64,000 nucleotides of DNA from an uncultured Bacilli bacterium (GTDB taxonomy: Bacteria; Bacillota_I; Bacilli_A; RF39; UBA660). The translations under genes were made by a program, and so were the position numbers. Numbering within the stretch: the first letter of the stretch is position 1; each line of letters starts with the position of its first letter. The notes under the pieces were generated by a model. It had not been told where the DNA came from, ran no database searches, and was given only the letters and a program-made list of their open reading frames with translations. Of this stretch, positions 8,209 to 29,091 are shown piece by piece. Where the stretch lies: assembly GCA_934122395.1 (NCBI GenBank), contig CAKOWQ010000002.1, positions 2,595 to 66,594 of the forward strand. Reading direction: 5' to 3'.

Positions 8209-8866
8209 TTTCTAGTTCTAAAATATAAACTATTTGCTTTGTTTTATCAGTTTGACTACAAGTAATTAAAGTTAAAGTATTCTTTTTATTATCTCTATGA
8301 ATTACAACTTTTCCTGTCTTATCAACATCATATTTTCCTGCTACTTTATATGTATATTTAATATTATTAAAATAAACATAGGCAACATCATCATTGCTTA
8401 ATTTATATAGATTTTTAAAATATGATATATAACTATTTCCAGAATGAGCAGCAATTATAAGATTTCCATTTTTAACATCTGGCATATCACTACCCTTTAT
8501 TACTTGTAAGTTTTTATTAACATTATTACCTTTATCATTGATATTTAAAAATCCTCTTTTTACATTTATTTTAGGTATTTCAAGAACTCCAATATAACTA
8601 TAATTTGGTGTTTTCTTTTCTTCTTGTTTTGGTTGTTCTTGAGTATCTTCATCATCAATATCAACTTTTATTACTTCAACTTCTTCTTTACCAATATTTA
8701 AAAACTCTTGGGCTTTTTTATAATCTCTTAGTTCTATGTAATAGTTATAACCAATTCTACCTATATACATAAAAGCACCAGTTAAGAATATGAAAGAAGC
8801 AACTAGTTTAATTAGTTGCTCCCTTTTATTTACATTTTTATTTTCTTTTGTTCTTTTTAGAAACAT
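8189..8866 (-). CDS. Sortase (cysteine transpeptidase).
   Basis: N-terminal TM anchor. Active-site His region 'LIIAAHSG' and catalytic Cys motif 'TLTLITC' (TLxTC). Sits immediately downstream of, and overlapping, its likely substrate gene. Confidence 0.75.
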   Translation of the reverse strand: MFLKRTKENKNVNKREQLIKLVASFIFLTGAFMYIGRIGYNYYIELRDYKKAQEFLNIGKEEVEVIKVDIDDEDTQEQPKQEEKKTPNYSYIGVLEIPKINVKRGFLNINDKGNNVNKNLQVIKGSDMPDVKNGNLIIAAHSGNSYISYFKNLYKLSNDDVAYVYFNNIKYTYKVAGKYDVDKTGKVVIHRDNKKNTLTLITCSQTDKTKQIVYILELESEENYE

Positions 8867-11411
8867 AAAGAAATACCCCCATTCCTACTACCATACAAGT
8901 AACACTAATTACTGTATATAGTTTACTGTTATTAGCCATAGTGTTTGGTACTTCAACTATTTGTTCATTAGTTAAATTAGCTTTAACTATTTCTCCATTT
9001 TCTTTGATTTCAAACTCTATAACTTCATCTGTTATTTGGTAACCAGTTGCACTTTCTTTTTCAATAATATGTCCTTTTCCTATAAATAAATCTTTAATGA
9101 TAATTTGACCATTTTCATCAGTAAGTCCAGAGAATATTAAAGTAGATTCTATTGTTCCATCTTCTAGTTCTTTATCTGAATAGATTTCTATTAAAGTATT
9201 AGGAATTGGTTTACCACTAACTAAATCTGTTTTAGTAAATTCTAAAGTTCCTTTTTTATAATAGTTTTGTAATTCTACATCTTTAACTATTTCTTTAGTA
9301 TATTGATCTTTATACTTTAACTCAAAAGTATATATTTTTTCATCTAACACATGATTATTATCTGTTGATTTCTCTTTTATATAGTATTTTCCAAGCTCAA
9401 GCCCATCAATAGTTGCCTTACCATCAGCAGTAATAACAGTTGTTATCAATTCATCTTTTGAATATTTTTTCTTACCACTAACATAAATATCCTCGTTAGC
9501 ATAAAGTTCTAATTCAACTTCGCTTAATAATATCTTTTTGTATCCAAAAGTATTATTATCTATAATTAGCTTTTCTCCATATTTAGTGATATTTAATTTT
9601 CCTTTAACTCTTTCATTCGCAAACTTAACTACTAATAAGGCACCGTAATCTTTATCAACTAGTATCTCGCTACCTTCTCCAATATGGATTGGCATTGCTT
9701 CACTATTCCAAACATAACCATCTAAGACATGATTTTCTACTTCTTCTAAAAGAAAATCTCCAACTAGATTTGATGGTGTTATAATCACTCCATTTTCATC
9801 TGTTTCATATTCACATACTTTTTTAGCAGTTGGATATGTTATTGTTTGACAAACATATTCATTAGTTTTAGCATCTTTTATTTTAAACTTAATACCTGCT
9901 TTAGTTATTACTTCGCCTGTTTCTTTATCAGTTTTAATAACTTTTAATTTTGCCTCAATAGGAGCATTGCTAACTAATTTATAAATATCACTACCAGTAT
10001 TTTCATTTACTTCAACTTCAAAATCTTTTACCTTTTCATAATCTGGTGTTGAATTAATTTGTTTAAAAGTATATTTACCATAAGGTAAAGTTATTTTTGC
10101 ATATCCTTTATCATCAGTTGTGATAGTATCTGCTAAACAAGTATTACTGTCTTTCAATAATGAATTAGAATTACAATTATTTAAGTAAATCTCAAATGTT
10201 ATATTAAGCTCGCCTTTTAATATTCCAGTTGCTCCACTTGCAAATGTTTTAAATAATGTAACATCTGCTTCTATAACTTTTTCATATACTTTCACATTAG
10301 CAAGTAAATTGTCTTTATCTACTACAAATGAATATTTATTGTTTGTATCTAAAGTATATCCTTTACTAGGTGATAGTTCTTTTAAATAAAACTCCCCTAA
10401 TGCTGGTAAATAATCACTTATACCATATCCATTTTCATCTGTAGTAATTTCTCCAACCTTTTCGTTATTCAAGTTATATATACCATACTTTGCACCACCT
10501 AGCGTGGCGTTTCCTTGTGGAATATTATTTTTAGTTTCACTATCCACTTTATTTATCTCTACTCTGCCACCAACTGACTCTAACTCTATACTCTTAACGA
10601 CTGGGTCAGCATTTCCAACTCTCATAACATTTTGAGAATGGTTAGAATAATAAACTATTGGAGTTACATCATAATAAGATGGTTTTTTAACTAAATTAAC
10701 TTTAACATTTTCTATTGAATTAGATGTGATTGTTAAAGTGTTTCCATTTATACTTGCTACACCATTTTCTACTGATGAAATACTAAATTGACTTAATACT
10801 CCATTTGTATCTGTAAAATCCAGACTTTTACCTATTGGTAATTTAACTCCGTCAATATTAAAACTTGGTTTAGTATAATGTTTATTTAATAAATCTTCCA
10901 TCTCTGCTATTTCACTAGCAAATTTATTTGGTAAGTCATTTCCATTTAGTGTATCTGTAAATACAATTCTTGATGTAGGTACTGCTGTTCTCCATATCAT
11001 AACCTGAGTAATCACATACCATTTATTATTTGAATGGTCATATCCATTTTCTTTATATTGATAACCATAATATGCTAAAAGTGATATTCTTTGCCATTGT
11101 TCTTCTGTCATATTAAGATATACAGCAAAATCACTTCTAGCTATTTTATAATAAGGCAAATTATTATCTATATCTACATAAGGTTGTAGGCAATAGACGA
11201 ATTTATTATCCTCACTTCTTCTTATAAATCCTGCTTGTTGATACTTAATGTATCCATCTTCTCTGTATTTTTTAATAAAAATATTTGCTATCTTTTCAGA
11301 TGGCCAAATAGCTTGACCTTTATATTCTTCAGCATTTACTTTTGTAATGCCAAAAAATATCGTAAAAAAAAGTATGCCGATTAAAGCATACAAAGTCTTT
11401 GTTTTATTCAT
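8838..11411 (-). CDS. Cell-wall-anchored surface adhesin with Cna-B-type (prealbumin-like) repeat domains and a C-terminal sorting signal.
   Basis: Signal peptide 'MNKTKTLYALIGILFFTIFFGITKVNA'. Repeated 'TDENG..' Cna-B-like modules (e.g. 'TDENGYGISDYLPALGEFYLKELSPSKGYTLDTN', 'GLTDENGQIIIKDLFIGKGHIIEKESATGYQ'). C-terminus 'VPNTM' followed by a hydrophobic segment and 'KKNKRK' tail, a classic sorting-signal architecture with a non-LPXTG motif. Confidence 0.7.
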   Translation of the reverse strand: MNKTKTLYALIGILFFTIFFGITKVNAEEYKGQAIWPSEKIANIFIKKYREDGYIKYQQAGFIRRSEDNKFVYCLQPYVDIDNNLPYYKIARSDFAVYLNMTEEQWQRISLLAYYGYQYKENGYDHSNNKWYVITQVMIWRTAVPTSRIVFTDTLNGNDLPNKFASEIAEMEDLLNKHYTKPSFNIDGVKLPIGKSLDFTDTNGVLSQFSISSVENGVASINGNTLTITSNSIENVKVNLVKKPSYYDVTPIVYYSNHSQNVMRVGNADPVVKSIELESVGGRVEINKVDSETKNNIPQGNATLGGAKYGIYNLNNEKVGEITTDENGYGISDYLPALGEFYLKELSPSKGYTLDTNNKYSFVVDKDNLLANVKVYEKVIEADVTLFKTFASGATGILKGELNITFEIYLNNCNSNSLLKDSNTCLADTITTDDKGYAKITLPYGKYTFKQINSTPDYEKVKDFEVEVNENTGSDIYKLVSNAPIEAKLKVIKTDKETGEVITKAGIKFKIKDAKTNEYVCQTITYPTAKKVCEYETDENGVIITPSNLVGDFLLEEVENHVLDGYVWNSEAMPIHIGEGSEILVDKDYGALLVVKFANERVKGKLNITKYGEKLIIDNNTFGYKKILLSEVELELYANEDIYVSGKKKYSKDELITTVITADGKATIDGLELGKYYIKEKSTDNNHVLDEKIYTFELKYKDQYTKEIVKDVELQNYYKKGTLEFTKTDLVSGKPIPNTLIEIYSDKELEDGTIESTLIFSGLTDENGQIIIKDLFIGKGHIIEKESATGYQITDEVIEFEIKENGEIVKANLTNEQIVEVPNTMANNSKLYTVISVTCMVVGMGVFLYVSKKNKRK

Positions 11412-18271: not shown

Positions 18272-18697
18272 TTAACGTTTTGAGAATTGTGGTGCACGTC
18301 TTGCTTTTTTCAATCCTGGTTTCTTACGTTCTTTAATTCTTGAATCTCTAGTAATAAATCCTGCTGGTTTTAATGCTTTTCTGAAACTATTTTCGCTATC
18401 GCTTGATGTAGTACTATCATATTCTAATAATGCTCTAGTAATACCTAAACGAATTGCTCCAGTTTGTCCTGAGAATCCTCCACCTTTAACTTCAACTTCT
18501 ACATCAAAGATTTCGTTAGTTTTAGTTAATTCAAGTGGTTGCATTAAATCCATAACTAAAGTTTCATAAGGTAGGTATTCGTGTACATCTTTACCATTAA
18601 CAGTAACTTTTCCTTTACCTGGAATTAATTTAACTTTAGCAATACTAGCTTTTCTTCTACCAGTACCGTAATATACGTTTTTCTTATCTTTTGCCAT
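18272..18697 (-). CDS. rpsI: 30S ribosomal protein S9.
   Basis: '[14 protein letters not shown] ... [20 protein letters not shown]'. Terminator hairpin GGAAGATATTATTATCTTCC downstream (~18225-18262). Confidence 0.9.
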
Positions 18698-18710
18698 CAG
18701 TTATTCCTCC

Positions 18711-19142
18711 TTATTTAACTTCCATAATTTCTGGTTTTTGAGCAGCATGTGGATGATTTGCACCTTTGTATACGAATAATTTCTTATACATTTGTCTTCC
18801 TAATCTGTTATGAGGAAGCATTCCTTTAACAGCTCTTTCAACCATTTCTTCAGGATATTGTTCTTTCATTACTTTAGCAGTTCTTTCTCTTAATCCACCA
18901 GTATACATTGAGTGATTATAATACATCTTGTCTTCTAATTTGTTACCAGTTAAATTAGCTTTTTCTGCATTGATAATTATAACATTATCACCGCAATCGA
19001 TATGTGGAGTATAAGTTGGTTTATGTTTACCACGAAGAATATGTGCAGCTTTAGCAGCTACTCTACCTAATGATACTCCTTCTGCATCGATTACATACCA
19101 TTTACGTTCAATTGTTTCTTTCTTTTGCATATAGCTTTTCAT
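18711..19142 (-). CDS. rplM: 50S ribosomal protein L13.
   Basis: '[41 protein letters not shown]'. Confidence 0.9.
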
Positions 19143-19255
19143 AATTTTTCTCCTTTACTTAAGTCCAGCTTCCCACGGCCAAACTTATGTGGGGATTTCA
19201 ATGTACCGATTAGAATTATACTAAAATCGTGCTTATTTGTCAACGAATTTCTATA
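19143..19255 (-). promoter_or_regulatory. sigma-A promoter (TTGACA-18-TATAAT, plus-strand coordinates 19215-19244) and structured L13 leader preceding rplM-rpsI.
   Basis: Minus-strand sequence TTGACAAATAAGCACGATTTTAGTATAAT, then a GC-rich leader 'CCCCACATAAGTTTGGCCGTGGGAAGCTGG' and RBS AAGGAG before the ATG. Confidence 0.55.
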
Positions 19256-19990
19256 TTATTTATAAGAAACTTCTACTAAATATAATCCTTCTGGTTTAGC
19301 TGTATAAACATACTTATTATCTTTAGTTCCATCTAATAATTCTTTAATAATATTACTTGGTAATTTACCTTTACCTATTTTGAGTAAGGTCCCAACCATA
19401 TTTCTTACTTGATATTTCATAAAGCCATTTCCTGTAAAACTAAAAACCAATGTATCTTCTTCTTTAGAAAGTGAAGCTGAATAGATAGTTCTAACATAGT
19501 TTTCTTTGATCGCTTCATTAGAGGTAAACACTTTAAAATCAAAAGTTCCTATAAAACTCTTGATTGATTCTTGCATCTTTGAAATATCAAGTTCTTTATT
19601 GTATTGATAAATGTAATTTCTCTTTATTGGATCATATTCTCCAGTATTCAAATAATATTTATATGTTTTTTCTTTTACCATAAATCTTGCATGGAAATAA
19701 TCATCAACACTTAAAGCATCTATAACATGAATATCTTCTGGTAATAAACTATTTAGTGCACATTTAAGTTTATACAAAGTAATATTAACCTCTAAATTAA
19801 AATGAGCAGTTTGTCCTAGAGCATGTACTCCCCTATCAGTTCTACCAGAAGAAAATATTCTAGTTTTAGTGTGATTATTAATATTAAATAAAGCATCTTC
19901 TAAGCAGCCCTCAACTGTTCTTTTATTAGGTTGTTTTTGATAACCATAAAAATTGGTTCCATCATATGAAAATTTAATTAAATAACGCAT
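19256..19990 (-). CDS. truA: tRNA pseudouridine(38-40) synthase.
   Basis: 'YDGTNFYGYQKQPN...RTVEG ... SGRTDRGVHALGQTAHF' TruA motifs. Conserved position upstream of rplM. Confidence 0.85.
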   Translation of the reverse strand: MRYLIKFSYDGTNFYGYQKQPNKRTVEGCLEDALFNINNHTKTRIFSSGRTDRGVHALGQTAHFNLEVNITLYKLKCALNSLLPEDIHVIDALSVDDYFHARFMVKEKTYKYYLNTGEYDPIKRNYIYQYNKELDISKMQESIKSFIGTFDFKVFTSNEAIKENYVRTIYSASLSKEEDTLVFSFTGNGFMKYQVRNMVGTLLKIGKGKLPSNIIKELLDGTKDNKYVYTAKPEGLYLVEVSYK

Positions 19991-20000
19991 ATTTCACCTT

Positions 20001-20642
20001 CTATTTATATAGTATTGTTAGTATAAATATTAAAATTGAAGCAATCATGAATGTATTATCAACGTTTCCCCATTTCATATTCAAAATACTTGTTTTCTTA
20101 TCATGAAATTTATAAAAACTTAACTTATTTCTATATGATACATCTTGTAAATCATAGTTAGTTTTGATTAAAGCTTGTTTAACTATATAATTACTGTACT
20201 TTCTTCTTGCATATTTATCAATATCATCATAAACATGCATGTTGTTATCAAATTTTTTACTTTTATAACAAGAGTCAAGATACAATTGCATTGATTTTTT
20301 ATTTCTGCTTTTATAAAAAAGCTTATCTACAATATACATTTTCTCTTTATTATTTGTCATTTCTTTGGCTATTAGATAAAGTACATATAACAATATTAAT
20401 TTCACAATGATTAATAAAAACGGATGAAGATAGTAAAACATAGATGCTACCACGAGAATTAATGATAATTGAAGTGCTTCAAAGTTTTTAAGAATAGCAG
20501 ATATTAAAATACTAAGACCTATTATTATAAAAACAATGTAAACGTTTTCAACCATAATAATAGATAACATTATTAATAGTAAACTTATAAATTTAGCATA
20601 TAAATTCAGATCTTTAAGGTTATTATATACTTTTGTATACAT
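20001..20642 (-). CDS. Polytopic membrane protein at the canonical ecfT position (highly divergent).
   Basis: Four or five hydrophobic helices. Overlaps the upstream degenerate ATPase gene by 20 nt. No EcfT ARG signature recognisable. Confidence 0.4.
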   Translation of the reverse strand: MYTKVYNNLKDLNLYAKFISLLLIMLSIIMVENVYIVFIIIGLSILISAILKNFEALQLSLILVVASMFYYLHPFLLIIVKLILLYVLYLIAKEMTNNKEKMYIVDKLFYKSRNKKSMQLYLDSCYKSKKFDNNMHVYDDIDKYARRKYSNYIVKQALIKTNYDLQDVSYRNKLSFYKFHDKKTSILNMKWGNVDNTFMIASILIFILTILYK

Positions 20643-21393
20643 CTTTCATCACATCCCTAACATCTTTTCTATAAAATAAATTTATATTCTTTTCTTTTTT
20701 AGCTTTATATGTCAAAAGAGAAAAATATGGTGTATCTATTTTTTTATTAATGAGCATTTCTACTTGTTGATATATATCATTAGTATTTCCTAATATCACT
20801 TCATTTTGGTTAATAATTGCTACTCTTTCAGTTAATTCATATAAAATATTACTATCATTACTAGTAACGATTACTAATACTCCATCATTTTTTAACTTAT
20901 TTATTAATTTCTTAATTATTTTTTTATTATTTAAATCCAACCCATTCATTATGTCTTTAAAAATTACAATTTTAGGTTTATAAATTAAGTTAGCAACTAT
21001 TTGAACAAAATACTTTTCAGTTGTTGAAAGTGTTGGTACGATTCTTCTTAAAATACTTTCATCTAATCCAACCATTAGTAGTAATTCTTCGATTCCTTGT
21101 TTTATCGTGTGACTTTTATACTCTCTTATTTTAGCATTAAAGAGTATTTCTTCTAAAACTTTAGACGTATAAAAACTTTTATCACTATCTATAATTGCAA
21201 TTAATTTTGAATTATATTTCCTATAAATACGCTCATCGATAAAGATATGACCACTTGAAATTAAAGATGGTTCTTTAATTATTTTTAGTAAATTATTAGC
21301 ATTATATATTCCATTCACATAATTGTTATCTAATTTGAAAGATATATTACTCAATTTATCTTTGTATGAAATCTTTTCAAAACTTACTTCCAT
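20623..21393 (-). CDS. ABC-ATPase-like protein with all catalytic motifs lost (ecfA'-position pseudo-ATPase).
   Basis: Vestigial signature 'LSTTEKYFVQIVANLIYKPKIVIFKDIMNGLD' aligns to LSGGQKQRVAIARAL...ILILDEP..LD. No Walker A, no Walker B Glu, no H-loop. Confidence 0.5.
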   Translation of the reverse strand: MEVSFEKISYKDKLSNISFKLDNNYVNGIYNANNLLKIIKEPSLISSGHIFIDERIYRKYNSKLIAIIDSDKSFYTSKVLEEILFNAKIREYKSHTIKQGIEELLLMVGLDESILRRIVPTLSTTEKYFVQIVANLIYKPKIVIFKDIMNGLDLNNKKIIKKLINKLKNDGVLVIVTSNDSNILYELTERVAIINQNEVILGNTNDIYQQVEMLINKKIDTPYFSLLTYKAKKEKNINLFYRKDVRDVMKDVYKSI

Positions 21394-22187
21394 AGCTTAT
21401 CCACCATCCCATCAACATCAGTAATTATCTCGTCTAGCACACCATAGAAATTAAGTTTTAATGATAAATCAATCATTGAGGGAATAATAAATCCTAATTT
21501 TGATAGCTCATTATCTTGGTGTAATACTTCATCGGGATTTCCTTCAATCTTAACATTCTTATCGCCTAAAACTATAACTTTATCAAACAGCAATATATTA
21601 TCAAGACTACTACTGGTGATGCAAAAAGTTGTGTCTTTTTTTACTTCTTGCAATATTTTGAATAATTCTTTACATTCACTTTCGTTTAATCTAGATAAAA
21701 TATTATCTAAAAATACTATTTTAGGTCTATGAATTAATGAAGTTGCAATTAATACTTTTACCTTTTCATATTCTGTTAATTCATCTATCTTTTTATTTAT
21801 ACAGTTTTCTAATCTAAATAAATTCCTTATTTCATACAACCTATTAGTTATATCTTTTTTCTTATAATTAAGGTTTTCTAGAGGAAATGCTAATTCATCT
21901 ATTACTTTCTCAAACAAGAATTTATTTTGATCATCAAAAAATACAACACCTATTGACAGCATATATTCTTTTAAGTTTTCCTTATTTAAATAAATATCAT
22001 TTACTTGTATACAATTATTACTTGGAAGTATTCCAGTAAGTAGGTAAATCAATGTTGTCTTACCACTAGAATTGGTTCCAAGAATTAAGTTTATTGTTCC
22101 TTTTTTTATCGAAAAATGTAGATTATTAAAAATTTGTTTATTTTCGTAAGAAAAATTTAAGTCATTAACTTGTAACAAATCTTCCAT
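21384..22187 (-). CDS. EcfA-like ABC ATPase with intact Walker A but degenerate signature, Walker B and H-loop.
   Basis: Walker A 'GTNSSGKTT'. 'ELTEYEKVKVLIATSL' replaces LSGGQ. 'KIVFLDNILSRLN' has Asp but no catalytic Glu. Confidence 0.55.
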   Translation of the reverse strand: MEDLLQVNDLNFSYENKQIFNNLHFSIKKGTINLILGTNSSGKTTLIYLLTGILPSNNCIQVNDIYLNKENLKEYMLSIGVVFFDDQNKFLFEKVIDELAFPLENLNYKKKDITNRLYEIRNLFRLENCINKKIDELTEYEKVKVLIATSLIHRPKIVFLDNILSRLNESECKELFKILQEVKKDTTFCITSSSLDNILLFDKVIVLGDKNVKIEGNPDEVLHQDNELSKLGFIIPSMIDLSLKLNFYGVLDEIITDVDGMVDKLWK

Positions 22188-22244: not shown

Positions 22245-23552
22245 CTAAAAAGGCATTTTCATATTTCCATTTGAGAATTGTTTCATCATTTTTTTCATTC
22301 GATCAAATTGTGTTAAAAGTTTGTTAACTTCTTGAACAGATAATCCGCACCCTTTAGCAATTCTTGTTTTTCTACTGGCTTTTATAATATCTGGATTTTT
22401 TCTTTCTTTTGGAGTCATTGAAAGTATTATTGCTTCAATGTGAGCCATCTGTTTTGGATCAATTTTTATGTTATTAAGTCCAAGTTTTGATGCACCTGGA
22501 ATTAATTTTAATAAGTTCTCTAGAGGACCTAATTTTTTAATTTGTTTCATTTGAGATAAAAAATCTTCTAAATCAAATTTACCACTCTGCATTTTCTTAG
22601 CTGCTTTTTCAGCTTCTTTTTCGTCAATTGCTTCCTGAGCTTTTTCAACTAAAGAAATTATATCTCCCATTCCTAGAATTCTTCCTGCCATTCGTTCAGG
22701 ATCAAAGTAATCTAGTCCATCCATCTTTTCACTAACACCAATAAATTTAATTGGAACATTAGTTAAATGTCTTACAGATAATGCAACACCGCCTTTAGTA
22801 TCACCATCTAATTTTGTTAAAATAACACCAGTTAATGGTAATGCATTATTGAATCCTTCTATTACATTAATTGCATCTTGTCCCATCATAGAATCTATTA
22901 CTAATAATATTTCTTGAGGATTTACACTATTTTTAATGTTTTCTAATTCTTCCATTAAAGCTTCATCAATATGTAAGCGCCCTGCTGTATCAATTAATAC
23001 ATAATCATAACCATTATCCTTAGCATATTTAACAGCATTATTAGCAATTTCTATTGGGTCTTTTTTACCTTCTTCATATACCTCTATATTTAGACTTGCT
23101 CCTATTTGTTTTAATTGATCAATAGCTGCTGGTCTATAAACATCACACGCTACTAAAAGAGGTTTTTTCTTGTTCTTTTTTCTTAATAAATTTGCAAGCT
23201 TACCAATAGTAGTAGTCTTACCACTTCCTTGTAACCCTACCAACATTAAAATTGCAGGATTACCAATTACATTTAATTCTTCTTTTTCGCCACCTAATAA
23301 CTCTGTTAATTCATCTTTAACTATTTTGACGAATACGTCTCCTGGTTTTAAACTTTTTTGAACTTCTTCACCAAGAGCTTTTTCTTTTACATCATTAATA
23401 AATTCTTTAACTACTTTATAGTTAACGTCTGCTTCTAATAATGCTAGACGTATTTCTCTAGTCATTTCACTTATGTTTTCTTCAGTTATCTTTCCATAAC
23501 CTTTTATTTTTGAAACTACATTTTGTAGTCTTTCCCCTAAACTTTCAAACAT
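22245..23552 (-). CDS. ffh: Signal recognition particle protein Ffh.
   Basis: 'LVGLQGSGKTTTIGKLA', 'DTAGRL', M-domain 'MTPKERKNPDII...'. Confidence 0.9.
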   Translation of the reverse strand: MFESLGERLQNVVSKIKGYGKITEENISEMTREIRLALLEADVNYKVVKEFINDVKEKALGEEVQKSLKPGDVFVKIVKDELTELLGGEKEELNVIGNPAILMLVGLQGSGKTTTIGKLANLLRKKNKKKPLLVACDVYRPAAIDQLKQIGASLNIEVYEEGKKDPIEIANNAVKYAKDNGYDYVLIDTAGRLHIDEALMEELENIKNSVNPQEILLVIDSMMGQDAINVIEGFNNALPLTGVILTKLDGDTKGGVALSVRHLTNVPIKFIGVSEKMDGLDYFDPERMAGRILGMGDIISLVEKAQEAIDEKEAEKAAKKMQSGKFDLEDFLSQMKQIKKLGPLENLLKLIPGASKLGLNNIKIDPKQMAHIEAIILSMTPKERKNPDIIKASRKTRIAKGCGLSVQEVNKLLTQFDRMKKMMKQFSNGNMKMPF

Positions 23553-23570
23553 TTTATCACCATGCTTTCT

Positions 23571-25328
23571 TTATTGTTGAGTCCAGTATTTTACAACATC
23601 ACTATTAGTACTTAAAGGCATAGGATCAGGCATTTCTAATTTTGCAATTACAGGAATTTTAAATGCTGTACCAAAACCTAAACATGTACCAGATTGTAAT
23701 CCTTTTTGTTTTTCTACTATTTCAGTATTAATATTAGGTATCATATTTTTAATATATTCTACATCTAAAGGATGATTAGTTTTGAAAATTATAAAGTTTG
23801 AACATTGAGATATAACAGTATCAGATAATTCAACTGGTCTTTGAGATATGACTCCTAACATTACACCATATTTTCTTCCTTCTTTAGCTACTCTATTAAA
23901 TATATTATAGCCATATAGGAAGTCATCATTATCATTGTTTCTTATATATCTATGCGCTTCTTCTACTAAAATATTAAATGGTACTGAGCCTCTATTTGGA
24001 ATTCTTTTAGCATAATCAAATATTATCCTTGTGAATATCTTTGTAATTACTGCTCCCATAGAATCGTCCATATCCTCTAAATTAATATTTACTATTTGAC
24101 ATTTTCTACCATTTGGTGCAAAGAGATAATTCATGTATTGATTTATGTCAATGTATTCTGGAAAAGTGAAGATATCACTATGAGGTCCAGTTAACAATGA
24201 ATGTAATCTTACTCTTATTGTCATTGCATCTGCATAAGTTTGTTTATTTTTAAACCATCCATCAGAGATAAGTGTAAATTCTAATGCTTTTTCAAAGTCA
24301 TTAAGTGTAAAATATGAATTACTACTTGGTTCATAACTGTCAAATTTACTATCAATAAATTTTGATACATATTCAGTAATTAAAATACCTTCAGTAAATG
24401 TACCCGTCTTATCAATATTAAAACAATCTCTAAATAATCTCGTATAACCAATTCCTTGTATTTCAGTATTAAGGCTAAATTGATCGGTAGTACATGATTC
24501 AACTATTTTAAATATATCATTTTTCTTATTTGCTGGTGTTGAATCACTGAATAACACTCCCATAATAGCTTTAGCTATAATATGATTCTTATAATTAATT
24601 GCATTTTCACCAACTTCTGCAAAAGATCTAGCAAGTTTCAATGTTTTTTCGATCATAGGAATTTGAGAATGTGAATTAGCCATTAAAAGAGATGATATAT
24701 CAGTAACATTTAATAACCATACTGGTATTCTTAACTTCTCCATAGTATTATCGGTTGTACTAGTTGTAAAAACACGATAATTAAAATTAGGATTAATAGT
24801 ATTTAAGTTAGAAAACGCATTAATATATTCTCCTGATACATCAAACATTATAAAATTAGAACGATATGGAACTACATTCGGGTTTTTGAAAACGTTTTGA
24901 ATTATTCGTGCAAGTCCACATGATTTACCACTACCACTATTACCAAATATTGCGAAATGATTGCTAAAAAACTTATTTACATCTAAGTATATTGGATGAT
25001 CATTATAAAAGGGGCTTGTTCCTAATAAAAGAGCATTACTCTCAGTCTTTCCTAAAATTAAAGGAATTTCGTTTTCTGTTAATGGTCTTATTTCAGCATC
25101 TAATAATGGCTTTCTGATAACTCCACCATATAATTCACCATTTTTAAATTCACCTAATAATTTTATTTTAACTTTTCTATCTTTAATTTCTTCTATTTCA
25201 CCTAATAATTGTTTTTCGACATCTCCAATTACAACATGAGCATTAAGTAAATTGTTTTTAACTTCAACATCTTCTTTAAGACTAACATATATGTTAGTAT
25301 CATTCATAAATTCAATCTTATTAAACAT
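23571..25328 (-). CDS. HerA/FtsK-superfamily ATPase (DUF87-like), 585 aa.
   Basis: Walker A 'FGNSGSGKS', Walker B 'FNILVEEAHRYI', C-terminal 'VISQRPVELSDTVISQCSNFIIFK' typical of HerA/DUF87. 11-nt gap from ylxM and 18 nt to ffh. Confidence 0.65.
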   Translation of the reverse strand: MFNKIEFMNDTNIYVSLKEDVEVKNNLLNAHVVIGDVEKQLLGEIEEIKDRKVKIKLLGEFKNGELYGGVIRKPLLDAEIRPLTENEIPLILGKTESNALLLGTSPFYNDHPIYLDVNKFFSNHFAIFGNSGSGKSCGLARIIQNVFKNPNVVPYRSNFIMFDVSGEYINAFSNLNTINPNFNYRVFTTSTTDNTMEKLRIPVWLLNVTDISSLLMANSHSQIPMIEKTLKLARSFAEVGENAINYKNHIIAKAIMGVLFSDSTPANKKNDIFKIVESCTTDQFSLNTEIQGIGYTRLFRDCFNIDKTGTFTEGILITEYVSKFIDSKFDSYEPSSNSYFTLNDFEKALEFTLISDGWFKNKQTYADAMTIRVRLHSLLTGPHSDIFTFPEYIDINQYMNYLFAPNGRKCQIVNINLEDMDDSMGAVITKIFTRIIFDYAKRIPNRGSVPFNILVEEAHRYIRNNDNDDFLYGYNIFNRVAKEGRKYGVMLGVISQRPVELSDTVISQCSNFIIFKTNHPLDVEYIKNMIPNINTEIVEKQKGLQSGTCLGFGTAFKIPVIAKLEMPDPMPLSTNSDVVKYWTQQ

Positions 25329-25339
25329 ATTTATACCTC

Positions 25340-25633
25340 TTACAATAATTCTTTTATTTTTTCTAACAAATCGTCTTCTATTTTACCTTTTAAAAGTTCA
25401 GTTATCTTGTCTTTTTTTGTTACTAAGTTAAGAATAGATTCCATTTCTAGTAATCGTTCCTCAACTATTTTTAATTGATTATGAACGGCATTACGGCTTA
25501 TATTATTTGCTTCGGCTATTTCACCTAATGAATAATTACTGCAATAATAATCCTCAAAATATTCTTGCTGTTTTTGTGTTAAGAAATCTTTATAGTAGTC
25601 ATATAAAATATTTAATTTTATTCTTTTGTCCAT
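25340..25633 (-). CDS. ylxM: YlxM/UPF0122 small DNA-binding protein of the SRP operon.
   Basis: 'LYDYYKDFLTQKQQEYFEDYY..SLGEIAEANNISRNAVHNQLKIVEERL' matches YlxM HTH. Confidence 0.8.
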   Translation of the reverse strand: MDKRIKLNILYDYYKDFLTQKQQEYFEDYYCSNYSLGEIAEANNISRNAVHNQLKIVEERLLEMESILNLVTKKDKITELLKGKIEDDLLEKIKELL

Positions 25634-25642
25634 AACTTTCTC

Positions 25643-26695
25643 CTACATCATATCTTTAAATAATCCATATATATATTTTTCAATATCAAATACTTGTAAA
25701 TCATCTTTAGTCTCACCAAATCCAATATATTTAACTGGTATACCAACACTTTCTTTTATCGCTAGAACTATACCACCTTTTGCTGTACCATCTAATTTAG
25801 TTAAAACTATTCCTGTTATATTAGTTATTTCTTTAAAACTTTTTGCTTGTACAATACCATTTTGACCTGTTGTAGCATCTATTACTAATAAAGTTTCGTG
25901 TGGAGCATCAGGTATTAATTTTCCTATTACTCTGTTTATTTTTTCTAGCTCTCCCATTAGATTAACTTTGTTTTGTAGACGTCCTGCTGTATCAATTAAT
26001 ACGACATCAATATTTTCCTCTTTAGCTTTTGTAAGGCCATCAAAAATAACACTTGCAGGATCCGCTCCTTCATGAGCACCTGTAAATTCTACTCCAACCT
26101 TATTTGCCCACTCTTCTAATTGTTTAGTAGCACCTGCTCTAAACGTATCACCAGCTACTAGCATAACTGTTTTGCCTTCATGTTTCAATTTATCTGCCAT
26201 TTTAGCAATAGTAGTTGTTTTACCTACACCATTAACACCTACAAACAGTACTACTGTTGGTCCTTCCTTGGCATAATTAATTTTATTAACAATTACTTCA
26301 TCATTGACATAAATAATAAATAATTCATCCACAATTATTTCGTTCAAATACGAAACATCTTCTATATGTTCTTGTCTTACTCTTTTACGAAGCCTTTCCA
26401 TGAAATCCATCACTGTATTAACACCAATATCAGCCATTATTAGAATTTCTTCTAATTCATCAAAGTACTCTTCTGTAACTTTGTGATATTTATTTGTTAA
26501 GTTAATTAGCTTTGATACAAAGCTTTCTCTACTTTTAGTTAATCCTTTTTCATAAATCTTTACACTTTCGACTTTTTTTTCAGATTTCTTTTCTTTTTCT
26601 ACTTCTTTTTTTTGATTTGATACTGCATTTTCTTTGATTTGTTCTTTTTTTTCTTCTTGTTTGAACATATTCTTAATTTTGTTAAATATTCCCAT
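25643..26695 (-). CDS. ftsY: Signal recognition particle receptor FtsY.
   Basis: 'VGVNGVGKTTTIAK', 'DTAGRLQNK', 'TKLDGTAKGG'. Confidence 0.9.
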   Translation of the reverse strand: MGIFNKIKNMFKQEEKKEQIKENAVSNQKKEVEKEKKSEKKVESVKIYEKGLTKSRESFVSKLINLTNKYHKVTEEYFDELEEILIMADIGVNTVMDFMERLRKRVRQEHIEDVSYLNEIIVDELFIIYVNDEVIVNKINYAKEGPTVVLFVGVNGVGKTTTIAKMADKLKHEGKTVMLVAGDTFRAGATKQLEEWANKVGVEFTGAHEGADPASVIFDGLTKAKEENIDVVLIDTAGRLQNKVNLMGELEKINRVIGKLIPDAPHETLLVIDATTGQNGIVQAKSFKEITNITGIVLTKLDGTAKGGIVLAIKESVGIPVKYIGFGETKDDLQVFDIEKYIYGLFKDMM

Positions 26696-26747: not shown

Positions 26748-27389
26748 TTAAAGATTTTCTTTAACCAATTCCTTTGTACGGTAGAAGGTTTTGGTACTAA
26801 TACTTACATTATTTAAATCAATTTCTTCTATTGATTTAATATTTTTATTTTCATTTTTATTATAAAGTGAAATAAATTCTTTCATTACTACATATTGATC
26901 TAGTACATTTTTCCCATTCTTTTGATAGTTATATAACTTAGCCGTTTCAGCTTCTAAAGAATTTCCTATTTTCTCTTGCCAAGATGATACTTTATATACT
27001 TTATAAAAACTACTTGAAGCTAGTTGTGAATCAATTAAGTAATCACCACATCTAAGTGTTACATATCTTTCTGCGTCAGTTACAGTAACAACTTTTGACT
27101 CATATAAATTACACTCTCCACCACCTCTAAATGGGTTTCTAAATGCTTTTATATAATTATCATTAACTATGTCCTCTAAATAGATTACTTTTTCATATTT
27201 TACTTTTTCATTACGATAAGTAGCAACGTTAGTAGCAAAGTCTCTTGCATTTTGAGCAAAAACTTCATACTTACGTTTTCCACTATCCTTAAATGCAATA
27301 TATGCAATAAAAGCCACGATAACAGCAATAAAAGCTATAATAGTCAATAATTCAATTAATACTAATCCACGATTATCTTTCATTTTCAT
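26748..27389 (-). CDS. Prepilin-like protein (type IV pilin/pseudopilin N-terminal domain), orphan.
   Basis: 'MKMKDNRG|LVLIELLTIIAFIAVIVAF': class-III signal with Gly at -1 and Glu at +5, followed by a hydrophobic helix. 213 aa. No pilus assembly genes in the window. Confidence 0.5.
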   Translation of the reverse strand: MKMKDNRGLVLIELLTIIAFIAVIVAFIAYIAFKDSGKRKYEVFAQNARDFATNVATYRNEKVKYEKVIYLEDIVNDNYIKAFRNPFRGGGECNLYESKVVTVTDAERYVTLRCGDYLIDSQLASSSFYKVYKVSSWQEKIGNSLEAETAKLYNYQKNGKNVLDQYVVMKEFISLYNKNENKNIKSIEEIDLNNVSISTKTFYRTKELVKENL

Positions 27390-29091
27390 AAGAATGCATC
27401 AACCTTACCTTAATTCCAGGATCATATGTGTCTAATGTATTGAAAGACACTTCTAAAGCCTTTTTATAATTACCTTTATAGAACAACATTTCTGCTCTTG
27501 ATAGTCCCTTATCTATTTCATTATTATCTTTTCTAAAGCGATTACCATATATAATTGCGTCTTCAACTAATCTTGCTGTTTTAATCATTTCATTAGTAGT
27601 ATTGTATAATTTTAAAACTAAATCTCTTGCTGTATCTACCCTAGTATTAAGTGTTTTAATAGAAATAGGTTTTTTTTCTAATTCTTTTATTATTTCTAGT
27701 ATTGCTTCATTGGCCTCTGATAGTTGTACAAAATACTCATTACCAATAATAGGTAATTTATACCCTCTTATTCTAATCTTAGATTGATTTAATAATTCTT
27801 GAATTTCATCTAGTTGTTCACGAGCTCTTACTTCATCTTCATACATATTGCCAAGTGATTTTAATGACATATCTAAATCATCGTCAACTTTTGATAAATT
27901 TAAAGTAAGATTTTCAAGGATCTTCAAGATCTTAGAATAAGATATTTCTTTTTTGTTTAAATCGATCAATGCCTTTTTATATTCTTCGTTAATATCTTCT
28001 AAACGCTTATTAACTTCATCGATAACCTTAATATCTTCATCAGTTAAATCATACATACTTTTAATTTCATCTAACTGACCATAAATATCTGTTACTATTT
28101 TATTTACTTTTTCTAGTTTTTTGTTAAATAAATTTGATTCTTCTTCGTATTCTTTTTTTGCTGTTTTTTCTTTTTCAAATTCATTAAATAATGAATCTAA
28201 ATATTCCAACATTGTACGTAGTTCAAACATACAATCTTCTAAATTTAATACTTTTATTCTATCAACTATAGAATTGACATTTTTCAATGATTCTTCAACA
28301 TTATATTCTATATTCATATATCCGATTGGATAGTCTTTAGCAACCATATCTTGATATGTTTCTGTAATTTGTTCAATGCGCTTTGGTATTAATTTTTCTG
28401 CTAGCAAAACTAAATCTGGGACTTCTGATACTACTATTGACATATGATCAACCATATTATCTATAGCTTTTACAATATGAACAACTTCACCATATTCATT
28501 TTTTTCCATGTATTCTTCAAAGTCTTGAAATCTTTTTTCAATATTCTCGAATTGTAATTCAATGATTTCAGCGATGTCCTCATAGTCATCTTTATTGTTT
28601 TCAAAAGTACTGCTAAGTTCACGATATTTACTTTTTAATTTTGTTATGATACTACGATACTTTTCTTCACTAGAATTAATTTCCTTTATTTCATCAAGTA
28701 AAGTATTCATCATTGTTCTAGCTTTATAAACCTCTATTTCTACATCTGCTAATTTGGCTTGATATGCTTTATAGTTTTTATTATCCCAAAAAATATCTAA
28801 ATCTATGATCATATCAGTAATATGCGCTAGTTGATTTGCTTTAATACTTTCAAATCTCTCCTGCCACTGTTTATATTTTTCTTCCATCTTATCATTTTTT
28901 ATAATTGTTTCGACTTTGGCAAGTTCAAGTAATATTGGTGTTGACTCTATAATATTTTTTTCTTTTTCTAATTCTTCAATAGTGTTTTGGAAGTTTTTGC
29001 TACGTCTTTTTTTTGTTGCAAATAAAACTACCACTACAAGAAGAATAGCAACTACTACATATGTTGCAATTATAAGAATTGTGCCATTCAT
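27373..29091 (-). CDS. ezrA: Septation ring formation regulator EzrA.
   Basis: N-terminal TM, approximately 570-aa coiled-coil protein. C-terminal 'IIYGNRFR' patch like the EzrA QNR motif. Confidence 0.7.
   Translation of the reverse strand: MNGTILIIATYVVVAILLVVVVLFATKKRRSKNFQNTIEELEKEKNIIESTPILLELAKVETIIKNDKMEEKYKQWQERFESIKANQLAHITDMIIDLDIFWDNKNYKAYQAKLADVEIEVYKARTMMNTLLDEIKEINSSEEKYRSIITKLKSKYRELSSTFENNKDDYEDIAEIIELQFENIEKRFQDFEEYMEKNEYGEVVHIVKAIDNMVDHMSIVVSEVPDLVLLAEKLIPKRIEQITETYQDMVAKDYPIGYMNIEYNVEESLKNVNSIVDRIKVLNLEDCMFELRTMLEYLDSLFNEFEKEKTAKKEYEEESNLFNKKLEKVNKIVTDIYGQLDEIKSMYDLTDEDIKVIDEVNKRLEDINEEYKKALIDLNKKEISYSKILKILENLTLNLSKVDDDLDMSLKSLGNMYEDEVRAREQLDEIQELLNQSKIRIRGYKLPIIGNEYFVQLSEANEAILEIIKELEKKPISIKTLNTRVDTARDLVLKLYNTTNEMIKTARLVEDAIIYGNRFRKDNNEIDKGLSRAEMLFYKGNYKKALEVSFNTLDTYDPGIKVRLMHSYENER

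Follow-up and report, generated by a model that had tools for sequence, protein, structure and literature searches.

In a 64-kb stretch of DNA from an uncultured bacterium of the class Bacilli (assembly GCA_934122395.1, contig CAKOWQ010000002.1), hereafter the window, a gene for a partner-less ATPase of the HerA family, herA, was found between ylxM and ffh, among genes of the signal recognition particle (SRP) system. On the minus strand, ezrA is followed by an open reading frame (ORF) of 213 amino acids and then by ftsY, ylxM, herA and ffh (Table 1). The run is headed by ezrA, which is conserved upstream in the closer relatives of the window locus. Both the herA ORF and its spacing, 11 and 18 nucleotides from its neighbors, are exactly as described in an earlier note on this DNA. 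Since the spacers are this short, ribosome-binding sites are present in both and a consensus scan found no minus-strand terminator between positions 21300 and 29900, co-transcription is the simplest reading; herA is almost certainly transcribed together with ylxM and ffh, as the earlier note had also proposed from the sequence. The GC content of herA (0.27–0.28) is equal to that of the flanking genes.

Table 1. Features of the herA locus and of the encoded protein in the window (residue numbers refer to HerA)
Feature	Position	Strand	Basis
Partner-less HerA-family ATPase gene (herA), 585 amino acids, ATG start	23571..25328	-	ORF; HMM, PDB and Foldseek matches
ezrA, septation-ring regulator, head of the same-strand gene run	27373..29091	-	Pfam EzrA, 9e-102
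Pilin-like ORF, 213 amino acids, between ezrA and ftsY	26748..27389	-	
ftsY, SRP receptor	25643..26695	-	Pfam SRP54_N + SRP54
ylxM, UPF0122 helix-turn-helix protein	25340..25633	-	Pfam PF04297, 2e-23
ffh, SRP54 homologue	22245..23552	-	Pfam SRP54_N + SRP54 + SRP_SPB
ylxM-herA spacer, 11 nucleotides, GAGG ribosome-binding site before the ATG	25329..25339	-	Sequence
herA-ffh spacer, 18 nucleotides, GGTGA ribosome-binding site, no terminator	23553..23570	-	Sequence
Walker A/P-loop GNSGSGKS, residues 129–136	24921..24944	-	Translation
Walker B/catalytic Glu motif LVEEAH, residues 454–459	23952..23969	-	Translation
KEGRKYG...SQRP, residues 482–498, putative arginine finger and sensor	23835..23885	-	Translation
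N-terminal all-beta domain, residues 1–105, predicted HAS-type beta-barrel	25014..25328	-	AlphaFold2 model
Alpha-helical insertion, residues ~208–403, splitting the halves of the RecA-like core	24120..24707	-	Model, pLDDT mostly 80–90

The window protein is a genuine soluble ATPase of the HerA family. It matches the Pfam family DUF87/PF01935 ('Helicase HerA, central domain') with 78.8 bits at a cut-off of 23.2 (E = 8e-22), and ten HerA models of PADLOC match at E < 1e-34, the best of them with 7e-105 over residues 77–584. All sequence matches in the PDB are HerAs, namely, HerA of the HerA-DUF4297 complex 9c1m at the top (5.5e-48), followed by SIR2-HerA chains and the archaeal protein 4d2i (2e-28). 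The assignment to HerA/DUF87 made in the earlier note is therefore borne out by the hidden Markov model (HMM) that it had named, and PADLOC, PDB and Foldseek agree with it. The scores with the equivalog models of NCBIfam, however, are far below the cut-offs, both for anti-phage HerAs (HerA_antiphage, 172.6 versus 800 bits; HerA_antiphage_2, 165.2 versus 850 bits) and for repair HerAs (103 versus 800 and 94 versus 970); because of these scores the protein, judged by its sequence, is a HerA that falls outside every curated HerA subfamily. No hydrophobic or membrane segment is present in it, the maximum of the Kyte–Doolittle index over 19 residues being 1.25.

Translation gives the motifs GNSGSGKS and LVEEAH and a HerA-like C-terminus, as read previously. 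At least 89 of the 92 members of the clade of partner-less HerAs described below have retained the ATPase motifs: the three glycines and the lysine of Walker A are invariant (92/92), the letters E, E, A and H of Walker B are retained in 89–90, R485 in 91 and R497 in 89. The motifs KEGRKYG...SQRP, which by alignment are also present in HerA of 9c1m, are the conserved arginine-bearing motifs of HerA-type ATPases and would provide a putative arginine finger and sensor.

The AlphaFold2 monomer model (predicted local distance difference test score, pLDDT, 77; predicted template modeling score, pTM, 0.72) contains 8 strands between residues 2 and 105, which form a predicted all-beta domain of the HAS-barrel type; the earlier note had suggested looking for it there. 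Defence HerAs consist of a beta-barrel, a RecA-like domain, an alpha-bundle and an arm (PMC11472057), and the model of the window HerA shows the same domain plan. The helical insertion would correspond in position to the alpha-bundle of these proteins. In Foldseek searches the whole model could be superposed on HerA chains from the HerA-DUF4297, SIR2-HerA and HerA-NurA complexes (E to 1e-25, TM-score to 0.71). An overall HerA fold is predicted together with the N-terminal barrel, which is supported by these alignments because the matched chains begin with a beta-barrel.

Conservation of the locus was analyzed by scanning one genome per GTDB species. Relatives of the window HerA are present in 215 species, and the best 80 of these 215, with identities of 57–87%, were used for analysis of the loci. 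All 80 are gut or rumen metagenome-assembled genomes (MAGs) labeled as Bacilli, Tenericutes, Erysipelotrichaceae, 'Clostridium sp. CAG:417' or Ca. Onthousia, the last being placed by NCBI in Bacilli incertae sedis. Mapping of the window proteins onto these loci showed YlxM directly upstream of herA in 71 of the 80 and Ffh downstream, within the fetched stretch, in 60; most of the loci lacking the full pattern are on truncated contigs, and in one sub-clade the upstream region differs. Two homologues with 62–65% identity, looked up independently, have the same gene order, and in a second sample, from metagenomes, all HerAs at least 50% identical to the window protein are encoded in the context ftsY-ylxM-herA-ffh. 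The position of the gene is stable in at least 70 species. In the source databases the proteins are named only 'ATP-binding protein', 'DUF87 domain-containing protein' or 'hypothetical protein'. The earlier note had set against an insertion the case of the same gene lying between ylxM and ffh in most related genomes under a known housekeeping annotation; the gene does lie there in related genomes, while a housekeeping annotation was found nowhere.

The locus varies in its accessory genes. In one sub-clade, comprising 20 of the 80 loci (e.g. L069 7365-10277, L067 7318-10220), three genes are located between herA and ffh: a gene for a protein of 402–411 amino acids that lacks known domains and is anchored in the membrane by its C-terminus, the gene fmt, and a gene for a membrane protein of 246 amino acids. 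Being limited to these 20 loci and absent from the window, they were rejected as a general hidden partner of HerA. In 39 SRP-context loci (e.g. L069 4292-4594), ftsY and ylxM flank the gene of a conserved predicted membrane protein of 84–100 amino acids. In the window ftsY and ylxM are separated by 9 nucleotides and this gene is missing; with an iterated HMM the protein was not found in the window or beside herA in other contexts. Its role as a conserved HerA anchor was rejected, an 89-residue protein encoded before herA in the sepF group (see below) not being detectably related to it.

Orthologues with 57–60% identity (L035-L086, e.g. L069 5001-7247; L054, L077) carry disordered C-terminal tails of 60–280 residues, rich in N, S, P and Q, which end in motifs specific to sub-clades: EPLITVPIK...SLNIDDIINAPDE, SPIPEININNxETL and GTPLVSITPE. 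The window HerA and its closer relatives (583–588 amino acids) have no such tail, and with tail ends varying by sub-clade a common C-terminal docking motif was rejected.

The divergence of HerA follows that of its neighbors. Across 45 complete loci, the identities of HerA, Ffh and FtsY to their window counterparts rise and fall together (rho 0.71 for HerA and Ffh, 0.60 for HerA and FtsY), and the Mantel r of pairwise distances is 0.60 for HerA-Ffh and 0.63 for Ffh-FtsY (both p <= 0.0005). The dN/dS ratios (nonsynonymous to synonymous substitution rates) against the four closest orthologues are 0.07–0.12 for HerA, 0.07–0.11 for FtsY and 0.05–0.06 for Ffh, values that are only approximate because dS is saturated (above 1). 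Thus herA has long been inherited vertically as a core gene in a group of uncultured gut Bacilli; it is not a recent cassette and is under purifying selection comparable to that on FtsY. An origin from a mobile element was rejected: the best plasmid matches are SIR2-HerA pairs with 32% identity, no partner-less clade member above that identity was found on plasmids or phages, and the search of a phage collection returned only a terminase and one unannotated record.

More distant relatives were collected by an HMMER search of 1.84 billion cluster representatives, which gave 4084 of them. Contigs were examined for those that align collinearly from residue 1 with 31–56% identity, and an alignment of distant members served to collect 80 further loci from metagenomes; neighboring genes were labeled by BLAST against a limited set of reference proteins of given Pfam content, supplemented by some Pfam scans. 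Across ~170 loci of partner-less HerAs, SIR2 was not detected by tblastn in any, and no recurrent nuclease or other partner beside herA was found with the limited reference set, DUF4297 not having been searched for specifically. The partner-less proteins cluster in a single clade of a neighbor-joining (NJ) tree built from 113 sequences, and within it the context classes are coherent sub-clades. With 100 NJ replicates on 99 non-redundant sequences, this clade is monophyletic in 100/100, is grouped with the clade of SIR2-linked proteins P0133/P0136 in 100/100, and contains the sub-clade of the dnaA context in 99/100. The window HerA belongs to a distinct chromosomal branch of HerAs, without effector partners, beside the SIR2-HerA branch. 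Full-text searches of the literature turned up no account of a housekeeping clade of partner-less HerAs.

The SIR2-linked sister and outgroup proteins are encoded in a different setting. P0133 (36% identity), P0136 (36%) and P0140 (34%) have a longer N-terminus, and the gene of each overlaps an upstream SIR2_2 gene in a restriction/defence island; the best plasmid match (32%) is a SIR2+HerA pair of a conjugative Lactobacillus plasmid. The tblastn search detected SIR2 beside all three and beside the plasmid match, which serves as a positive control. The alignments leave ~10–30 additional N-terminal residues of the SIR2-linked sisters uncovered, so that the partner-less proteins are seen to have shorter N-termini. 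The HerA of SIR2-HerA (Nezha; Paenibacillus 8wiv/8wld, E. coli 8j4u/8sub) is the nearest phylogenetic neighbor of the window HerA, with 31–36% identity, the same predicted full-length architecture and the same ATPase motifs. Unlike it, the partner-less clade has no adjacent SIR2, is located in core operons rather than in defence islands and is vertically inherited. The HerA of HerA-DUF4297 (9c1m/9c1n, 8xau, 8ziq) is the best match both in the PDB (5.5e-48) and with Foldseek (1e-25), its chain has 585 amino acids like the window protein, and EEAH and KEGRKYG...SQRP are common to both; identity in structural alignments is only ~23%, and, in contrast to that system, the window HerA is in a chromosomal housekeeping setting without a recurrent partner gene (as above, DUF4297 was not a specific target).

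A tblastn search of the whole window for SIR2 homologues, which did not cover NurA and DUF4297, gave none; the statement of the earlier note that no effector is adjacent stands for SIR2. With no adjacent SIR2, no defence island and equivalog scores below the cut-offs, the window HerA lacks the defining features of the SIR2-HerA and HerA-DUF4297 systems. A single-gene anti-phage or abortive-infection module, with a HerA that dispensed with its effector (SIR2 or DUF4297), or had always worked without one, and by chance landed in the SRP operon, would account for the best HMM and structure matches being defence HerAs (PADLOC; HerA-DUF4297 and SIR2-HerA chains) and for the SIR2-linked sister clade. 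It is nevertheless very unlikely, given the stable position in at least 70 species, the divergence in step with Ffh and FtsY, the FtsY-like dN/dS, the normal composition, the anti-phage equivalog scores of 165–173 bits at cut-offs of 800–850, the absence of clade members above 32% identity from plasmids and phages, and the fact that no defence-island neighbors were seen in the window or in the clade loci. The 'single-gene defence or repair insertion' offered in the earlier note is not supported, in view of vertical inheritance, purifying selection, normal composition and membership of a chromosomal clade distinct from the SIR2-linked HerAs.

With the archaeal and bacterial HerAs of the HerA-NurA end-resection systems (Sulfolobus 4d2i, Thermococcus 9x1l/9x1m, Deinococcus) the window protein shares the fold, and like them it is presumably a hexameric DNA translocase, but in sequence it resembles them far less (2e-28, limited to the C-terminal half). 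Those systems are defined by a linked nurA, often with mre11-rad50, and by a score above the repair-HerA cut-off; the window herA has no adjacent nuclease gene and scores below that cut-off. A repair helicase or translocase of this type, which would process DNA ends for recombination with a nuclease (NurA, RecJ or other) encoded elsewhere, is unlikely. The classical role of HerA is end resection with NurA (PMC9960219, PMC12977600); the predicted fold matches the HerA-NurA structure 9x1m, and some clade members adjoin rmuC or recF. Against this role, no recurrent nuclease partner was found in the ~170 loci with the labeling described, the scores with repair-HerA equivalogs are far under the cut-offs, and the closest relatives are HerAs of the SIR2 type, not of the NurA type.

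The gene contexts of the wider clade fall into several recurrent classes, each at a fixed chromosomal site that differs from lineage to lineage. The order PP2C-(x)-herA-sepF-divIVA-...-ileS was found in ~13 loci, as well as in P0124 and P0126; ftsY-(small membrane protein)-ylxM-herA-ffh in ~14 loci; and herA-dnaA-dnaN-recF, with rnpA-yidC-jag on the opposite strand, in ~8 loci and P0130. In L126-L128 herA is divergent from a DivIVA/GpsB-like gene. A complete FtsK, with alpha, motor and gamma domains, is encoded in L116 (5715-7988) and ends 13 nucleotides before herA; FtsK is located 3.5 kb from herA in L120 and ~7 kb in L123. The order rmuC-herA is present in P0127, and in P0134 herA follows a parA-like gene. 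Other contexts have no obvious link to DNA, namely, HIT/PrsA, LtaS/PlsC, YqeH, BipA, a serpin and an AI-2E transporter.

Two further observations concern individual members of the clade. In L149/L151 (5118-11988) herA is preceded by genes for a VirD4/TraG-like coupling protein and a rhodanese and followed by genes for a protein with a DnaB_2 domain and for an ATPase of the DnaI/IstB type; these genes may make up a dnaB-dnaI operon of the chromosome or belong to a mobile element that has integrated there. The metagenomic protein P0125 (943 amino acids) has a degenerate GNDGFGKS, LLIDNAH in place of EEAH and GEVSS in place of SQRP, together with an acidic, serine-rich tail of 360 residues, and is probably a paralogue without ATPase activity.

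A role in protein targeting was considered in view of the location in the SRP operon: HerA might use ATP to unfold or translocate proteins bound for secretion or the membrane, or might remodel SRP RNA/ribosome complexes. Such a partner of the SRP machinery would agree with the tight linkage of herA to ftsY, ylxM and ffh, and its probable co-transcription with them, which extend over dozens of species and to HerAs of only 50% identity; the FtsK-HerA superfamily also includes protein-secretion ATPases such as VirB4 and EssC, whose models match the window HerA weakly. This role is rather improbable, since the same clade is found outside the lineage in unrelated operons without SRP genes; within the lineage up to ~4 kb (411-residue protein, fmt, 246-residue protein) may lie between herA and ffh, some loci have no ftsY-ylxM upstream, the closest characterized relatives act on DNA, and the window HerA has no membrane segment. 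The recruitment of a HerA into the SRP operon, one of the two options in the earlier note, is upheld as regards position, in dozens of species and for every homologue with at least 50% identity; no functional link to SRP was found.

On balance, we favor a housekeeping HerA, probably translocating DNA, that is co-transcribed with the SRP genes and serves a task in the chromosome or cell cycle rather than in defence. The protein is a soluble HerA-family ring ATPase, built of the predicted N-terminal beta-barrel, a RecA-like core with intact motifs and the alpha-helical insertion, and its gene, almost certainly transcribed with its neighbors, is a fixed and vertically inherited member of the run ftsY-ylxM-(herA)-ffh in this lineage of gut Bacilli. 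By analogy with other HerAs, a hexamer would use ATP for movement along nucleic acid, most likely DNA. The gene contexts point to handling of DNA coupled to replication, segregation or division; a cell-cycle role is suggested because clade members of different lineages have repeatedly and independently become fixed beside genes of division (sepF-divIVA, the gpsB/divIVA-like gene), replication (dnaA-dnaN-recF) and segregation (ftsK, rmuC and the parA-like gene), and ezrA at the head of the window gene run is counted among the division genes. Since the link to SRP vanishes outside the lineage, and inside it ~4 kb may split herA from ffh, the position in the SRP operon would most likely reflect constitutive co-expression with core genes and not a role in protein targeting.

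Several points weigh against this interpretation. Its functional part is drawn from gene neighborhood only, and the genomes are small and gene-dense, with most neighbors being housekeeping genes anyway; about half of the context classes (HIT/PrsA, LtaS, YqeH, BipA, serpin, transporter) are unrelated to DNA or division. In view of such neighborhoods, the functional assignment is made with modest confidence. The hexamer and DNA binding are suggested by homology and the structure is a monomer model, the dN/dS values are approximate, and the trees are NJ distance trees only, which do not give the direction (domestication or recruitment). The context of L149/L151, with its VirD4-like coupling protein, may be mobile. 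Finally, the taxonomy of the MAGs is coarse, and the figure of 215 species counts carriers and is not a fraction of the lineage.

The chromosome translocases FtsK, SpoIIIE and SftA belong with HerA to the same ASCE superfamily; SftA is soluble. Like them, HerA is found in the neighborhood of division genes (ezrA, sepF, divIVA), and the window protein is soluble like SftA. It is not a member of this family, however: unlike FtsK and SpoIIIE, it matches PF01580 over a P-loop region of 70 residues only (24.4 bits) and has no alpha, gamma or membrane domain, whereas the alpha and gamma domains of FtsK in L116 were recognized by the same Pfam method. No FtsK was found among the large ORFs of the window that were tested, nor in the window by tblastn with FtsK of L116. 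Replacement of FtsK by HerA was rejected for the three lineages L116, L120 and L123, because a genuine FtsK adjoins herA or lies near it there.

Two settings of bacterial HerA have been known so far: it drives anti-phage systems of two genes (SIR2-HerA, HerA-DUF4297), or it acts with NurA in end resection. A large, vertically inherited clade of HerAs without effectors fits neither setting. A possible, though tentative, extension of the housekeeping interpretation is that the clade represents an unrecognized core cell-cycle motor of gut Bacilli with reduced genomes, a soluble hexameric DNA translocase that, by analogy with SftA, would act alongside FtsK in replication, segregation or septation, with ancestry recently shared with HerA of SIR2-HerA. 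If so, it would point to exchange between immunity and housekeeping, through domestication of a defence motor or through a housekeeping source of a defence motor. If HerA is a housekeeping motor, it would be a new component of chromosome or cell-cycle biology in abundant uncultured gut Bacilli and a clean example of one motor shared by core functions and immunity. Pipelines for detection of defence systems, whose HerA models match the window HerA strongly (7e-105 with PADLOC), should not score a partner-less herA as a defence remnant.

Among the other genes of the run, the 213-residue ORF between ezrA and ftsY has an N-terminus, MKMKDNRG/LVLIELLTIIAF..., that resembles the class III signal of type IV pilins and pseudopilins, with Glu at +5. 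It has no Pfam match at E <= 0.001, the weak match to TadF being at 0.0076. Proteins with 25–61% identity are encoded at the same position in ~25 related loci and are absent from others.

Downstream of ffh in the window (18272-22187, minus strand) the usual order rpsP-rimM-trmD-rplS is not present; two ORFs for ABC-type ATPases and a membrane ORF, which by eye from their translations look like ecfA-ecfA'-ecfT, are followed by truA, rplM and rpsI. Gene content on this side of ffh varies among related loci. Elsewhere in the window (8838-11411, minus strand) a surface protein of 857 amino acids is encoded; it carries one thioester domain (TED) plus five prealbumin-like repeats of the SpaA kind and is an adhesin of the Gram-positive type.

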